DNA from: Caldilineaceae bacterium
Lineage (GTDB): Bacteria > Chloroflexota > Anaerolineae > Caldilineales > Caldilineaceae
DNA length: 64,000 nt
Direction: 5' to 3'
Assembly: GCA_034428435.1 (NCBI GenBank)
Contig: DAOUHY010000265.1
Location: 16,408 to 80,407, forward strand
The notes under the pieces are model-generated. The model worked only from the letters and a program-made list of their open reading frames with translations, was not told the DNA's origin and ran no database searches. This document shows, piece after piece, positions 2,449 through 61,974 of this stretch. The first letter of the stretch is position 1, and every line of letters begins with the position of its first letter. The translations under genes and the position numbers were made by a program.

Positions 2449-5148
<2,700 letters not shown>

Positions 5149-8068: not shown

Positions 8069-8196
8069 GTTGCGCTCCTCGCATTCGCTTCCAGTTCAAT
8101 TGTCGACTTTTCGCCAGAATTGAAGGGCGAACAGCCATCTCATTGGACCTGCATCGGATAGAGGTCGGGGGGATTGGGGACAGATCGCTTTTTGGG

Positions 8197-8632
8197 GGTG
8201 CATCGCTGATTTGGAGTGGGAACAGTCAGGCGGGGAATCGGTGCCAGCGGTGGCGGGGGAATCGTTTACAGGCTTTTGGAGAAACGCAGGGCAGGCACGA
8301 GGGTGAGGAGAGAGTGGAGAGGAGCGAGGAGAGAGTGCCGCAGTGTAGTCTGCGGGGGACTGGCGGGACGTGGTTTGGCTGGACACTTTCGATTTGGCAC
8401 TCGTTACGAATAGCGACACCAGGTCGGCGAGGCATGTTGTAGGAGAGGGGGCGTTGCGGGGGCGGAGCCCCCGCACAAGGGAGGGCCGACTAGGCCCGAC
8501 CGCCCAGAAATGCAGTGGTCAGTAGTCAGTGGTCAGAGACGGCGCTCTGGCTGCCTCAGATTTGATCGCGGAGCGGCCATGGTTAGGTCTCTGCCAGAGG
8601 ATTGCGTTAGCTCACCCCCATTTTGGGATGCA
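8197..8632 (+). mobile_element. MITE-like non-autonomous element, copy A
   Basis: Imperfect terminal inverted repeats: 5' GGTGCATCGCTGATTTGG and 3' CCCCATTTTGGGATGCA. It is flanked by the identical 11-mer CGCTTTTTGGG at 8186-8196 and 8633-8643. It shares a 73-nt core (8434-8506) and most of its other sequence with copies at 36616-37079 and 61042-61499. No credible ORF. Confidence 0.7.
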
Positions 8633-8650
8633 CGCTTTTTGGGCAACCGT

Positions 8651-8679
8651 TTGCTCACGTCCCCCGATTGTGATAGCAT
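8651..8679 (+). promoter_or_regulatory. Predicted sigma70-like promoter (TTGCTC-17-TAGCAT)
   Basis: Hexamers at 8651-8656 and 8674-8679 with a 17-nt spacer. The -35 box starts after an 18-nt gap from the MITE copy A end, upstream of the zinc-ribbon/M42 genes. Pattern match only. Confidence 0.3.
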
Positions 8680-8720
8680 GAGCCAGACCAATTTCGACCC
8701 AATTGACACGGGGAAGCCGT

Positions 8721-8933
8721 ATGTCCGACTGCACCGAATGCGGAACCTGGAATCCCGACGATAAGGAAGTTTGCTGGCGCTGCCAGGCCGTATTGCCGAG
8801 ACCGGTGGAGAACAAGCCGAAGCGCCGCCTGATGATACTGGGCATGCCGGTCTGGGTGTGGATTGTGGTTGGGTTGATCTTTGTCCTTCCTCTCTTTGGC
8901 CAGTGCGCGCAGCTTGGAGTCCCCGCCGGATAG
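8721..8933 (+). CDS. Small zinc-ribbon membrane protein
   Basis: MSDCTECGTWNPDDKEVCWRC (CxxC...CxxC) followed by one TM helix (LMILGMPVWVWIVVGLIFVLPLF). GGGGAAG lies upstream of the ATG at 8721. The TAG stop overlaps the next gene's GTG (TAGTG). Confidence 0.55.
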   Translation: MSDCTECGTWNPDDKEVCWRCQAVLPRPVENKPKRRLMILGMPVWVWIVVGLIFVLPLFGQCAQLGVPAG

Positions 8934-33154: not shown

Positions 33155-35410
33155 TCATCTGCGCGGACGGCCCCCGTTTCTCATACTGCGGTCGCGGTCG
33201 CGGTCGCGGTCGCGGCGTCCACCTCTGTCGCGGTCGCGGCCGCCGCCGCGGCGCCCACCGCGGTCGCGGTCACGAGCTTCCTCTGCACTCCAACCTTCCA
33301 ATACAGCTTGCCGGCTCAACCGAATTTTGCCTGCGGGATCGATGTCGATCACCATGGTTGTGAGTTCATCGCCGACGTTGGCGATTTCTTCCACGTTATT
33401 GACCCGGTAGTCGGCCAACTGACTGATGTGTACCAACCCGTCCACGCCGGGCAGCAGGTTGACAAATGCACCGTAGGCTTCGACTCTCACCACCTGTCCG
33501 GTGTAGATTTTGCCTATTTCGACCTCTTCGGTCAGAGATTCGATTTCGCGGCGGGCCTCTTCGGCAGCGAGACCGTTAAGGCCGGAGATAAACACCGAGC
33601 CGTCGTCGTCGATATCGATTTTAACCTCGTATCGTTCCTGCAGGGCTCGAACTGTCTTGCCGCCCGGGCCGATGATCTTGCCGATCTTCTCCGGGTCGAC
33701 GCTCACTGTCAGGATACGCGGCGCGTAGGGGCTTAGCTCCTCACGGGATTCGGGGAGAACCTCCAGCATCTTTTGCATTATGTGAAGGCGCCCCTGGCGG
33801 GCCTGCTCCAGCGCGATGCGCAGGATCTCGAAGTCCAGTCCTTTGATCTTGAGATCCATTTGCAAGGCAGTGATGCCATGACTGCTGCCGGCGACTTTGA
33901 AGTCCATGTCGCCGAGATGATCTTCGACGCCCTGGATATCGGACAACACCACGTAGTCCCCGGAGTCCTGGTCCTGCACCAAGCCCATTGCAATGCCGGA
34001 AACAGGGGCATCGATTGGGACGCCAGCGTCCATGAGCGCCAGCGTGCTTCCGCAGACTGAGCCCATGCTGGTCGAACCGTTACTGCTGACAGCCTCGCTC
34101 ACCAAGCGCAGGGTGTAGGGGAAATCTTCAGGAATAACGGTCTGCAGGGCACGTTCGGCGAGGGCGCCATGACCGATTTCGCGGCGTTTTGGACCCCTCA
34201 TGGGATAGGCTTCGCCGGTCGAATAGGGTGGGAAGTTGTAGTGATGGATATAGCGTTTTTCTTCTTCCGGCTGCAATGTGTAGAGGCGCTGGGCATCGCC
34301 CGGCGTGCCAAGTGTAGCAATTGTCAGGACGTGCGTTTCGCCGCGCATAAAGAAGCCGCTGCCGTGGACACGGGGAATGTTCCCCACCTGAACCCGGATC
34401 GGTCGTACGGTCTGGGGGTCGCGGCCATCGGGTCGGACGCTCTCGTCCAGGATGCGTCTGCGAACTGCGTCCTTGTAGAGGTTGTCCAACGTGTCGTCCA
34501 CGTCTCCGGCTTCGACCTCTCCTGTTCCGATCGGTTCGGACAGGGCCTCCATGGTTTCGTCGCGGATCGCGGCGAGGCGGGACTTGCGTTCGTCACGGTC
34601 CGTTGTCCCGGCCACGGCTGTCGCGACTTTGTCACGCGCCAGCTGGTTCACCTGTTCGACAGTGTGATCGGCAGCTATGAAGACGGGATAGTCGGTATGT
34701 TTTTCTTTGCCGACGTCTGCCTGCATCTGCTGAATCGTCTGAATCGCCGGCTGCATCGATTCATAGGCCAAACGCAGCCCATCCAGCATGATATCTTCCG
34801 GGAGCTCGTTTGCGCCGGCTTCCACCATCAGGATATTGTCGGCCGTACCGGCAACCTGCAGGCCGAGAGTGCTCAACTGCATATCGGAAGCTGTCGGGTT
34901 GACAACAAACTCGCCGTCAACATAGGCGACTGAAGCTGCGCCAACGGGCCCATCCCAAGGAATGTCGCTGATTGACAGGGCAGCTGAAGCTGAGATGATC
35001 GCCAGTGGGTCGATCAGGTGCTCGTTGTCAGAACTGAGCGCGGTGAGGATGATTTGAACTTCGTTGCGCATACCCTTTGGGAAGAGCGGGCGCAGGGGCC
35101 GGTCCACCAGGCGGCAGAGGAGGATCGCCTGTTCGCTAGGCCGGCCTTCACGGCGGAAGAGGTTGCCAGGAATACGTCCGGCGGCGTAGAGTTTTTCTTC
35201 AAAATCGACGGTTAAGGGAAAGAAGCCGATTCCCGGCCTCACGCCTCTATCCATCGTGGCAGTGGCGAGGATTACCGTGTCGCCGCACCTGACGGTGACG
35301 GCGCCGCCTGCCTGCTGGGCAAGGATACCCGTCTCGATACTAAGCTCTTTGTCGCCCAAAGTCGTCGTATAGGTTTGGGCGCCTTCAAACAATCTGAATT
35401 GGTCCATCAT
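33155..35410 (-). CDS. pnp: Polyribonucleotide nucleotidyltransferase (PNPase) with Arg/Asp/Gly-rich C-terminal tail
   Basis: [10 protein letters not shown] domain [16 protein letters not shown]1 domain [18 protein letters not shown], and tail [29 protein letters not shown]. Confidence 0.97.
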
Positions 35411-36207: not shown

Positions 36208-36615
36208 GTGGTACTCCTGAACTCCTTTCCTTTTGGACCAGAGAATCCCGAATGCGCTGTCCAATTGTAACCATTCTCTGGAGGGCCGCCTGTTGCGTTG
36301 AGAGAGCCAAATCATCGCTGGAATACCTTGGCGCATGATCCAGCCGGTACTGAATCAGTTTAGCACATGAGCAGACGACTCCCAAACTTTCGCCGTCATG
36401 TCACTATACGTAGAACCTCGTTATGGGGTCGCGTCAGGGCCTTGAGAATCCGAAGTCGCAACAGAATGCTGGGTAGATTCCGGGTGCAGAGACATGGCTC
36501 AACAGTTATCCAAGGTTCTTTTTCGGACGCGGATTCAAGAGATTGACTGGATGGGAATACGACTGGGAGACCACGGCAAGGCGCCAGGAGAATTGACGGG
36601 GCATTGCCGTGGTGT

Positions 36616-37079
36616 AAGGTGCATCCCTGATTTGGGGAGGGAACGGCCTGGCGGGGAATCAGTGCCAGCGGCGGCTGGCGTTGTATAGCGTCTTTGGGCG
36701 AGACGCAGTGCAGGCGCCGGGCCCGGCCGTACGGTGGCGTCCGTCAGTTGGGGAGGGTGCGAGGGCAGGCACATGGCCGGCACCTACGGGGATCTGATGG
36801 GACTGGCGGGACGTGGTCGGGCTGGACACCTTCGATTAGGCACCTGTTACGAACATCGACACCAGGTCGACCAGGGATGTTGTAGGAGAGGGGGCGTTGC
36901 GGGGGCGGAGCCCCCGCACAAGGGAGGGCCGACTAGGCCCGACCGCCCAAAGGCGAGGAGAGAGGGGAGAGGAGTGAGGAGAGAGACGCCGTTTCTTTTG
37001 CCTCAGAGTTGATCGCGGGGTGGCAATGGTTGGTCTGCCGCCAAAAGTATACGAGTGTTCGCCCCTATTTTGGGATGCA
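36616..37079 (+). mobile_element. MITE-like non-autonomous element, copy B
   Basis: Same family as 8197-8632. Ends are AAGGTGCATCCCTGATTTGGGG and CCCCTATTTTGGGATGCA. It is flanked by GCCGTGGTGT at 36606-36615 and 37080-37089. The 73-nt core at 36877-36949 is identical to copy A. Confidence 0.7.
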
Positions 37080-37096
37080 GCCGTGGTGTCGACCTC

Positions 37097-37125
37097 TTGA
37101 AAACAGAATTGGCTGCCCTTATAAT
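37097..37125 (+). promoter_or_regulatory. Predicted sigma70-like promoter (TTGAAA-17-TATAAT)
   Basis: Hexamers at 37097-37102 and 37120-37125. The -35 box starts after a 17-nt gap from the MITE copy B end, about 210 nt upstream of queG. Pattern match only. Confidence 0.4.
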
Positions 37126-60475: not shown

Positions 60476-60832
60476 CTACTGCCACTCCAGGGCGCCCTTG
60501 CGCCAGTCGTACATGAGTCCAATCACGAGCAGGAGAACAAAGAAGATTGTCGCGAACACTGCAAACATTTCCAATTGCTGGTATGCAACCGCAATTGGAA
60601 AAAGGAACAGGGCTTCAACATCGAACACGACGAAGACCAACCCAATCAGGTAGTACTGAGCTCGGAATTGCACCCAAGTCTCGCCAATGGTTTCGACGCC
60701 GCTCTCGTATATATCGTTCTTGATCTCATCGGGCCGGCGGGGACCAAGGAAGTTGCCCAGCACAATGGCGGCGAGAGGCAAAACGACCGCCAAGCCGGAC
60801 ATAACCAGTATGAAGAAATATTGACTGAGCAT
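60476..60832 (-). CDS. nuoA: NADH-quinone oxidoreductase subunit A (copy 1)
   Basis: 118 aa from MLSQYFFILV. YESGVETIG, FDVEALFLFP and C-terminal YDWRKGALEW. The track ORF over-extends to 60922. Confidence 0.9.
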   Translation of the reverse strand: MLSQYFFILVMSGLAVVLPLAAIVLGNFLGPRRPDEIKNDIYESGVETIGETWVQFRAQYYLIGLVFVVFDVEALFLFPIAVAYQQLEMFAVFATIFFVLLLVIGLMYDWRKGALEWQ

Positions 60833-61041
60833 TGCCGAAAATCCGTTTGTGTGGAATTTAACAAACTCCCGCGAAAGTATAGCATAGCGATTTCTGATAG
60901 CGAAAGTTCGTACCCTTCGCAAACGCGTTCAAAGTGGAGGCGATGACTACATATTCGAGGGATTCGATAGGATAGGGGCGGGGCTGCTGAAAAGATCCTT
61001 CGATGCGACCCGTCAGCATGCTTGTTGAAGTCAATCGATAC

Positions 61042-61499
61042 GGGTGCATCCCAGATTTGGGGTGGGAACAGTCTGGCAGGGAATCAGTGCCAGCGGTGGC
61101 CGGGGTTGTTTGCCGTCTTTGGGCGAGGCGCAGTGCAGGCGCCAGCCCTGGCCGTACGATGGCGTCCGTCAGTTGGGGCGGGTGCGAGGGCAGGCACCTA
61201 CGGGGAATTGATAGGGACGGCGGAACGTGGTCTGGCGAAGCCCGGTCGAACAGGCACTTATCGCCAATGTCGACACCCGGTCGATAAGGCATGTTGTAGG
61301 AGAGGGGGCGTTGCGGGGGCGGAGCCCCCGCACAAGGGAGGGCCGAATAGGCCCGACCGCCCAGAACTGCAGCAGTTAGTAGTCAGTAGTTAGTGGTCAG
61401 AGACGGCGCTCATTCTGGCGGAAACTGGAATGGGAACTGACCATGGGTTGGGTGCCTCCAGAGATATACGAAAGTTCGCCCCAATATTGGGATGCAGAC
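61042..61499 (+). mobile_element. MITE-like non-autonomous element, copy C
   Basis: Same family. The 5' end is GGGTGCATCCCAGATTTGGGG and the 3' end is CCCCAATATTGGGATGCA(GAC). It is flanked by ATCGATAC at 61034-61041 and 61500-61507. The core at 61291-61363 differs from A and B at one loop position. Confidence 0.65.
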
Positions 61500-61516
61500 A
61501 TCGATACCGACGGGCT

Positions 61517-61546
61517 TTGACAGGAGATTTTGGTTCGTGCTAGAAT
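61517..61546 (+). promoter_or_regulatory. Predicted sigma70-like promoter (TTGACA-18-TAGAAT)
   Basis: Hexamers at 61517-61522 and 61541-61546. The -35 box starts after a 17-nt gap from the MITE copy C end, about 70 nt upstream of the plus-strand nuoA. Confidence 0.45.
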
Positions 61547-61617: not shown

Positions 61618-61974
61618 ATGGCAAGCGACTATCTGCCACTTCTCATACTGATCCTGCTGGCGGCCGGATTCGGCGTAATTGCCATAGGTCTGCCTTCACT
61701 GTTAGGTCCACGAGAGCGCAACAGTCAGAAGTTGGAGCCATACGAATCGGGGATCATCCCCTTTGCCGACGCCCGTCGACGATTCCCGGTGAAATACTAT
61801 CTGGTTGCCATGCTCTTTCTGATCTTCGACATCGAAGTAATCTTCCTCTACCCGTGGGCGGCCGTCTTGAGAGACCTTCGCCTGTTTGCCCTATTGGCGA
61901 TGATTCCCTTTTTCATTGTACTCGTGGTAGGTTTCCTCTATGAATGGAAGAAGGGCGCTCTCGATTGGGACTAG
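61618..61974 (+). CDS. nuoA: NADH-quinone oxidoreductase subunit A (copy 2)
   Basis: YESGIIPF, FDIEVIFLYPW and YEWKKGALDW. It is only distantly similar to copy 1. Confidence 0.92.
   Translation: MASDYLPLLILILLAAGFGVIAIGLPSLLGPRERNSQKLEPYESGIIPFADARRRFPVKYYLVAMLFLIFDIEVIFLYPWAAVLRDLRLFALLAMIPFFIVLVVGFLYEWKKGALDWD

Follow-up and report, generated by a model that had tools for sequence, protein, structure and literature searches.

A non-coding MITE family of Caldilineaceae with the ends of an ISKra4-family insertion sequence and a recurrent position upstream of predicted promoters

Introduction

Bacterial MITEs (miniature inverted-repeat transposable elements), such as Correia/NEMIS in Neisseria and Nezha in cyanobacteria, are short, non-coding, multi-copy and intergenic elements, which carry inverted repeats, duplicate their target and are moved in trans. 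Here, we describe a repeat of 439–466 bp, present as copies A, B and C in a stretch of 64,000 nucleotides from Caldilineaceae bacterium (GenBank assembly GCA_034428435.1, contig DAOUHY010000265.1, positions 16,408 to 80,407 of the forward strand). The whole stretch is referred to as the window, and all positions without a locus name are counted from its first nucleotide.

The closest described systems are mobilised by the prokaryotic Mutator-like transposases, which were defined by Guerillot et al. (2014; PMC3942029) and act on inverted repeats of 18–39 bp with a terminal C, giving direct repeats of 8–9 bp. Within them, the ISKra4 group (p-MULT 4) has DDE transposases and includes ISKra2, ISKra4, ISKra5, ISKra6, ISAcce1 and ISCasp2; the ends given in the supplementary table read ...ATGCACCC for ISAcce1 and ...CGCACCC for ISCasp2 (PMC3942029). 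TnGBS/ISLre2 elements and 13 insertion sequences (ISs) of the ISKra4 group insert 13–17 bp upstream of sigmaA promoters, and either side can face the promoter when the inverted repeats are 83–100% complementary (PMC3942029). This targeting was linked to a signature in the transposase sequence, located between its domains N1 and N2 (PMC3942029). For TnGBS, transposition 15–17 bp upstream of sigmaA promoters was reported (Brochet et al. 2009, as cited in PMC3942029).

Based on the comparison of the window copies with related loci, we conclude, with a probability of about 0.9, that the window repeat (~440–470 bp) is a non-coding MITE, which has the ends of an ISKra4-family IS, is moved in trans by the transposase of such an IS and is targeted to promoters.

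Copies in the window

The following features delimit the three copies and their flanking duplications.

8197 to 8635, forward strand: MITE copy A, with family-consistent boundaries; its termini agree with the consensus of the family and with the ends of the IS (left IS end: 96% over 26 nt)
8197 to 8219, forward strand: 5' terminal inverted repeat of copy A, GGTGCATCGCTGATTTGGAGTGG, corresponding to the right end of the IS (IRR)
8611 to 8635, forward strand: 3' terminal inverted repeat of copy A, CTCACCCCCATTTTGGGATGCACGC, corresponding to the transposase-proximal left end of the IS (IRL), with CCC changed to CGC
8189 to 8196, no strand: left 8-bp target-site duplication of copy A, TTTTTGGG, from the sequence and the family-wide ends
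8636 to 8643, no strand: right 8-bp target-site duplication of copy A, TTTTTGGG, on the same basis
36617 to 37082, forward strand: MITE copy B, with degenerate terminal nucleotides (AGG..., ...GCC)
36609 to 36616 and 37083 to 37090, no strand: duplication of copy B, GTGGTGTA and GTGGTGTC, a 7/8 match, GTGGTGT(A/C)
61042 to 61499, forward strand: MITE copy C, in which the terminal CCC reads GAC
61034 to 61041 and 61500 to 61507, no strand: duplication of copy C, ATCGATAC, perfect over 8 bp

All three copies lie on one strand and have inverted termini and flanking direct repeats. Their whole-length alignment has a mean column identity of 81%, and an internal stretch of about 75 nt is invariant except for a single variable position. 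A 22-mer of the conserved core occurs three times in the window, compared to zero occurrences in 100 shuffles. The final C is retained even in the degenerate termini (CGC, GCC, GAC). The copies are old; their outermost nucleotides have decayed, and A and C are shared with related genomes.

An initial annotation of the window had described copy A as a MITE-like element at 8197–8632 with an 11-bp target-site duplication. In a direct check of the sequence, the 11-mer CGCTTTTTGGG was found exactly at 8186–8196 and 8633–8643, as described, and the segment between starts with GGTGCATCGCTGATTTGGAGTGGG and ends with CTCACCCCCATTTTGGGATGCA, the two ends being mutually inverted. However, the family-wide ends give a duplication of 8 bp. 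The 11-mer is composed of the 8-bp duplication TTTTTGGG and the degenerate terminal CGC of copy A itself (derived from CCC), which is matched upstream by chance. This upstream CGC is peculiar to the window strain, and reads TGC in the relatives L110 and L106 (99% and 96% identity of the neighbouring protein, respectively). The start of the element stays at 8197, with an ambiguity of 1 nt (8196/8197) owing to a G run; its 3' end (...GCACGC) extends 3 nt further to 8635. The inverted ends recur in the other window copies and in dozens of loci, and the two additional copies in the same orientation were likewise found (36617–37082 and 61042–61499). The proposed footprint of transposition is borne out by independent copies at many unrelated loci of several Caldilineaceae genomes, which have 8-bp duplications of their own. 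The initial reading as a MITE hence stands; the promoter-proximal insertion rule and the conserved internal core had been missed.

Ends, duplications and distribution of the family

The consensus ends of the family, GGGTGCATCCC...GGGATGCACCC, were fixed from more than 100 related loci of Caldilineaceae metagenome-assembled genomes (MAGs). The terminal inverted repeats GGGTGCATCCCnnnnTTGGGG and CCCCnAnnTnGGGATGCACCC, which are about 24 bp long and end with ...GCACCC, were found in the window and in dozens of loci. An 8-bp direct repeat directly abuts these ends, and its sequence changes from locus to locus. Perfect duplications are TGTCAAAC (L056), GCGCATAG (L074), TTCCCGGA (L063) and ATCGATAC (window copy C); 7/8 matches flank the elements in L008, L035, L036, L067 and L078 and window copy B. 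In total, about 10 of about 20 independent elements have an 8/8 or 7/8 duplication, compared to at most 4/8 in a shifted control.

A scan for exact matches to the core 22-mer, covering one genome per species, yielded more than 104 stretches. Among the matches listed, all are from Caldilineaceae MAGs, several of them sponge-derived, and the repeat is the exact point at which many short-read contigs stop. About 50 of the loci retrieved, which come from several MAGs of Caldilineaceae, belong to the same family. The ABC-2 permease adjoining copy A is 98–99% identical to proteins of Caldilineaceae bacteria. Since both the scan matches and this flanking permease are from Caldilineaceae, the window element is a high-copy repeat of this lineage. 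A distant BLAST search of a plasmid collection gave no match.

Two other types of element were considered and rejected. A retroelement had been suggested by seemingly variable direct repeats of 8–11 bp with filler in the window, but the family-wide ends give a constant 8 bp, and the filler consists of degenerate termini. A REP/RAYT-like element was suggested by GTAG in front of the core in some copies; this motif is not conserved, and the inverted ends and duplications argue otherwise.

Likely autonomous partner

The initial annotation had proposed that the element is non-coding and non-autonomous, with no transposase in the 64 kb, and had suggested looking for a longer autonomous element with the same termini. 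The open reading frames (ORFs) overlapping the MITEs match no Pfam family, and tblastn with the ISKra4-type transposase gave no match in the window. Such a longer element was found: an IS of 1449–1461 bp (L122, L130, L136–L140), which has the same termini and encodes an ISKra4-family transposase. It came to light only through a terminus-pattern scan of metagenome contigs, which gave 15 loci. Two of these have both termini, 1453 and 1461 bp apart (L122:3830–5282 and L130:493–1953), and each encodes on one strand a transposase matching NCBIfam NF033572 (E 3e-65 and 5e-68). With ORF2 alone, the NF033572 score is 221–230 bits, which is above the curated cutoff of 205. Five more copies were found (L136–L140), of which the four with both ends in the fetched stretch are 1449–1453 bp long. 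The IS in L140 has a perfect 8-bp duplication and the one in L136 a 7/8 duplication.

The inverted repeats of the IS are complementary at 22 of 25 positions. Its left end, on the side of the transposase gene, corresponds to the MITE 3' end as read in the window and matches that of copy A at 25 of 26 nt; on its right side, 22 of 23 nt agree with the 5' end of copy C. The ends of IS and MITE are 96% identical over 23–26 nt, and the 1.45-kb IS is likely the autonomous partner of the MITE.

The transposase is encoded by two ORFs (139–150 aa and 317–318 aa in L122 and L130), which overlap in every fetched copy (L122:4782–5201 and 3860–4813, minus strand; likewise L130 and L136–L140). Homologues with E below 1e-40 number 848; most are called as 317 aa, being likewise split, and one is annotated from Caldilineaceae bacterium SB0661_bin_32. 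Fused homologues of 448–451 aa place a +1 frame change at a T5C6 run (GGGTTTTTCCCCCCTGG), which may reflect programmed slippage rather than decay.

The same 8-mer, GCTGGTCC, forms the right IS flank in L137 and the left IS flank in L138, both from one sample. This suggests recombination between two IS copies, which would explain why some IS copies have no matching duplication.

Insertion position relative to promoters

Promoters in this study are predictions from sequence, with sigma-70-type −35 and −10 boxes read outward from the true ends of the elements; in the count over all ends, they were required to match at 8/12 positions or more. The sites next to the window copies are as follows.

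8651 to 8679, forward strand: putative promoter next to copy A, TTGCTC-17-TAGCAT with TG (extended −10), its −35 box 15 nt past the end of the element
37097 to 37125, forward strand: promoter-like TTGAAA-17-TATAAT next to copy B, 11/12, 14 nt beyond the end, upstream of a queG-like gene
61517 to 61546, forward strand: promoter-like TTGACA-18-TAGAAT with TG next to copy C, 11/12, 17 nt beyond the end, upstream of nuoA

A promoter-like match whose −35 box starts 14–17 nt beyond the element was found at 24 of 68 non-redundant ends (12 at 15 nt and 10 at 16 nt). With shuffled flanks, 0.85 such ends were obtained on average and never more than 4; in a control, the second MITE family F2, the count was 0/37. 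Full-length IS copies have the same spacing as the MITE. Either end can face the promoter (IRL-type 18/42, IRR-type 6/26), and the orientation bias is only a trend. The predicted promoters of all three window copies follow the spacing rule (15, 14 and 17 nt). A promoter prediction tool confirmed the sites next to copies B and C, and the promoter next to copy C is 100% conserved in seven relatives. The one next to copy A, which is conserved in orthologous loci, would serve the downstream zinc-ribbon ORF and M42 peptidase genes.

Since the element lies upstream of the −35 box, it is outside the downstream transcript; this excludes a conserved 5' untranslated region, which the initial annotation had named as the alternative.

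The spacing might instead result from selection after random insertion, with a MITE being retained where it left a promoter intact or activated it, and not from targeting by the transposase. In favour of this explanation, MAGs show retained copies only and never fresh insertions, intergenic space in these genomes is limited, and about two thirds of the ends have no promoter at the canonical spacing. We regard it as improbable, as the spacing hardly varies (15 or 16 nt in 22 of the 24 ends with a promoter), is the same for full-length IS copies and does not appear in the second MITE family of the same genomes. In addition, one target 8-mer was struck twice in L140 (see below), and the rule has been published for this transposase group and for TnGBS (PMC3942029, citing Brochet et al. 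2009).

The ORF directly downstream of the copy A promoter (8703–8933, 70–76 aa) is conserved and encodes a CxxC...CxxC zinc-ribbon with a hydrophobic tail, with weak Pfam zinc-ribbon matches only (E 0.003). It is followed by three M42 peptidase genes, which are paralogues of one another (repeat family D6; 9548, 10615 and 11646).

History of sites A and C and repeated use of a target

Site C is located between two divergent nuoA genes and is filled in all ten contigs of relatives that encode identical NuoA, with an intergenic nucleotide identity among relatives of 83–97%. Some lineages have acquired independent mutations in the left duplication (ATCGATAT), whereas the right duplication and the promoter are invariant, which is the signature expected of a single old insertion. 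The two nuoA-like genes, of 118 aa each (60476–60832, reverse strand, and 61618–61974, forward strand), diverge across copy C, and each heads its own nuo set.

Site A is filled in relatives with protein identities of 99, 96 and 88%, and is represented by truncated remnants only in L107 and L108 (about 92%) and in L133 (91%). The 88% relative also has a structurally different variant of 356 bp. The duplication matches within each lineage but differs between lineages (TTTTTGGG, ATTTTGGG and TTTCGCGG). The simplest reading would be that elements inserted here several times independently, since the promoter rule leaves no other position; a single old insertion is the alternative. In L133 (3299–3345) and L107 (4799–4830), where copy A is truncated, units of GGGGAACTGCA run just past the stop codon of the permease and merge into GGGG-type heptamers, replacing the 5' half of the MITE.

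Repeated insertion at one target does occur, as the target 8-mer in L140 was used twice. The order at L140:1028–2607 is promoter, TCGTGCGG, IS, TCGTGCGG, a mini-MITE of 106 nt and TTCGTGCG, so that the target 8-mer is present three times, and an outward promoter is predicted 16 nt from the left IS end. From its sequence, this arrangement is read as two successive insertions into the same target 8-mer. Similar mini-elements of about 100 nt were observed in L036 (2742–2841) and L095 (3155–3254).

Interior of the element

The internal features of copy A are listed below.

8447 to 8505, forward strand: two-hairpin core, GGGGGCGTTGCGGGGGCGGAGCCCCCGCACAAGGGAGGGCCGACTAGGCCCGACCGCCC, also at 36890–36948 and 61304–61362
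8513 to 8536, forward strand: tandem array of heptamers, (CAGTGGT/CAGTAGT)n, immediately 3' of the core
8303 to 8337, forward strand: purine-rich heptamer-like tract (GAGGAGN)n

The core of about 60 nt, GGGGGCGTTGCGGGGGCGGAGCCCCCGCACAAGGGAGGGCCGAnTAGGCCCGACCGCCC, folds as two GC-rich hairpins, with a predicted RNA fold of −41.9 kcal/mol (z = −4.0). Among 30 core variants, the apical pair of hairpin 1 is switched between C-G and G-C in 10, a G-U pair on the strand shown occurs in 9 and hairpin 2 has a switch between G-C and C-G in 2. Changes on both sides were found in 2 of 20 pairs. This covariation fits the hairpins but is weak, because the core sequence hardly varies. In orthologous copies of site C (L141–L147), the core is 98–100% identical, compared to about 0.87–0.90 for the flank and about 0.6–0.8 for the rest of the MITE; at the nuoA site, where the MITE sequence next to it is 60–85% identical, its conservation equals that of the adjacent promoter. 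These values suggest either selection on the core or homogenisation among copies.

The heptamers after the core vary in type and number (CAGTGGT, CAGGGGY or GAGGAGN). Further arrays were observed in the window (36955–36986 and 61370–61400) and in L064, L098, L023 and L050. (CAGTGGT)n reaches eight or more units in L064, (CAGGGGY)n provides four G4 tracts, with which G-quadruplex formation is possible, and the purine-rich heptamers are at different positions within copies A and B.

The MITE family F2, of about 410 bp, has unrelated termini (GGTAACTACTAAGCCAT...ATGGCTTAGTAGTTGC); the core, the heptamers and a portion of the 3' body are common to it and the window family. It was found in L026 (4572–4980) and in L092, L080, L054, L024, L070 and other loci; no copy was seen in the window, and its ends have no promoter at a fixed distance. 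An F2-like 3' terminus is present just inside the 3' end of the window family. This suggests that one of the two families was built from the other.

The conserved core also raises the possibility that the whole repeat is a cis-regulatory leader or the gene of a structured non-coding RNA, whose termini pair as a closing helix and which has direct repeats at its flanks only by chance. The two hairpins with their few compensatory and G-U changes, the stability of the fold, the identity of the core in copies that drift elsewhere and a consensus fold that pairs both ends of the element are all in its favour. It is nevertheless very unlikely: the 8-bp duplication changes from one locus to the next, an IS that bears a transposase has identical ends, and the element is outside the downstream transcript and occurs in both orientations relative to the adjacent promoter. 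A prediction scan of the window elements gave no internal promoter-like or terminator-like site. Rfam 15 gave no match at gathering score in the whole window, and at E values up to 10 only two chance-level eukaryotic matches at 8100–8750, which covers copy A. The core was also considered as a known ribozyme or riboswitch; this was rejected as its junctions, judged by eye, are unlike those of hammerhead or twister and Rfam is silent.

A narrower proposal concerns the core and heptamer array alone: purifying selection could be acting on them as a structured module, of RNA or DNA, that has a function and is not inert filler. We make it tentatively, because the core is near-invariant, is common to two MITE families and was kept at 98–100% identity while the surrounding MITE drifted by about 15–40%; on balance we rather doubt it. 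Such a module might bind a protein, act as an insulator or terminator, or enhance transposition.

Proposed mechanism and its assessment

The termini, the duplications, the distribution over many loci, the promoter spacing and an IS with identical ends and an ISKra4 transposase are observations; mobilisation in trans, the chemistry of transposition and the mode of promoter recognition are what we infer from them. A Mutator-like DDE transposase from IS copies elsewhere in the genome would bind the ends of the MITE and move it in trans. Integration would duplicate 8 bp of the target and be directed 14–17 bp upstream of the −35 box of promoters read by the housekeeping sigma factor, in either orientation. 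As the basis of promoter recognition, Guerillot et al. proposed that the transcription machinery is contacted (PMC3942029). On this model, the promoters that received an insertion would be that of the cluster of the zinc-ribbon ORF and the M42 peptidases (copy A), that of queG (copy B) and that of nuoA (copy C).

Several results weigh against this interpretation. About half of the elements checked have an imperfect duplication or none. The promoter next to copy A is a weak match to the consensus (7/12 plus TG) and is below the threshold of the promoter tool. IS and MITE have only the terminal 23–28 nt in common and the MITE interior is unrelated to the IS, so that the MITE is no simple deletion derivative of the IS. 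By tblastn, no ISKra4-type transposase was found in the window or in about 830 kb of sampled Caldilineaceae loci, and neither terminus spacing nor tblastn indicated an autonomous element within 104 genome loci. The search for empty sites in relatives, which the initial annotation had proposed, yielded no clean empty site in eleven contig look-ups; site C is filled in each of the ten relatives covered, and site A is filled or represented by truncated remnants in every syntenic relative. This is the main gap in the evidence for mobility, which rests on duplications at many loci and not on a presence/absence polymorphism, with indirect support from the threefold 8-mer of L140 and the lineage-specific duplications of site A.

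The missing transposase and the unrelated interior would also fit mobilisation by another 8-bp-duplicating family (IS256, ISL3, IS1595 or IS6) with ISKra4-like ends that are coincidental or secondarily captured, but this has the lowest probability of all, given that 23–26 nt of each end match the IS at 96%, that the terminal ...GCACCC is common to published ISKra4-group elements and that promoter targeting is a hallmark of the ISKra4 group not found for IS256 (PMC3942029).

Significance

With a MITE mobilised by an ISKra4-family transposase, as preferred here, the Mutator-like ISKra4 group gains a MITE family of high copy number. The rule of insertion some 15 bp upstream of the −35 box is thereby extended to an element that is non-autonomous and lives in sponge- and environment-associated Caldilineaceae. 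The repeats break short-read assemblies, in which many contigs end within a copy. Likely promoters are marked by them to the nucleotide, which may aid the annotation of uncultured Chloroflexota. Regulation may be altered, because each copy parts a promoter from the DNA that natively lies upstream. In the conserved core inside the repeat, there is a concrete candidate for a structured element of a new kind. If it is functional, the ISKra4-type MITE would be a vehicle by which housekeeping promoters across Caldilineaceae genomes receive a regulatory cassette at about −50.

As a separate observation in the window, GTCGCG-rich tandem repeats at 33170–33274 encode the Arg/Asp/Gly-rich C-terminal tail (RDRDRGGRR...) of polynucleotide phosphorylase (33155–35410, minus strand).

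Comparison with known systems

The window family is most similar to the ISKra4 group. Its ends, ...GGGATGCACCC, resemble those of ISAcce1 and ISCasp2, its inverted repeats are about 24 bp long with a terminal C, and its direct repeat is 8 bp. It is located 14–17 bp upstream of the −35 box of sigma-70/sigmaA-type promoters and can have either of its ends on the promoter side, the inverted repeats of its partner IS are complementary at 22/25 positions and the NF033572 transposase is present in the full-length partner only. In contrast to the group, the window MITE has no transposase and only its terminal 23–28 nt in common with the IS; the transposase of the Caldilineaceae partner is split into two ORFs at the T5C6 run. 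TnGBS/ISLre2 elements are comparable in their position 15–17 bp upstream of sigmaA promoters and in their repeats of 8–9 bp. However, they have a transposase of another clade (the ISLre2 profile gives 70–80 bits on the partner transposase, below the cutoff of 200), insert one way, with IRR next to the promoter, and are autonomous or conjugative.

Pneumococcal BOX elements are modular, with a variable number of sub-repeats, and the interior of the window family is modular in the same manner. The family differs from other bacterial MITEs in its promoter-proximal targeting, which would be inherited from the transposase, and in an interior that is not derived from the IS but is common to a second family with unrelated termini. 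The cyanobacterial STRR sequences are tandem heptamers of variable copy number in intergenic repeats. By description only, they are similar to the arrays of CAGTGGT, CAGGGGY and GAGGAGN that follow the core on its 3' side; they differ in phylum and in heptamer sequence, and the window arrays are embedded in MITEs beside a conserved hairpin core.

MITE derivatives of the ISKra4 group are not mentioned in PMC3942029, and neither such derivatives nor a description of these Caldilineaceae repeats were found in the literature searched. Taken together, the targeting, the repeats of 8–9 bp and the ...GCACCC termini were already published for the ISKra4 group (2014) and the mechanism is not new, whereas the MITE family itself is.

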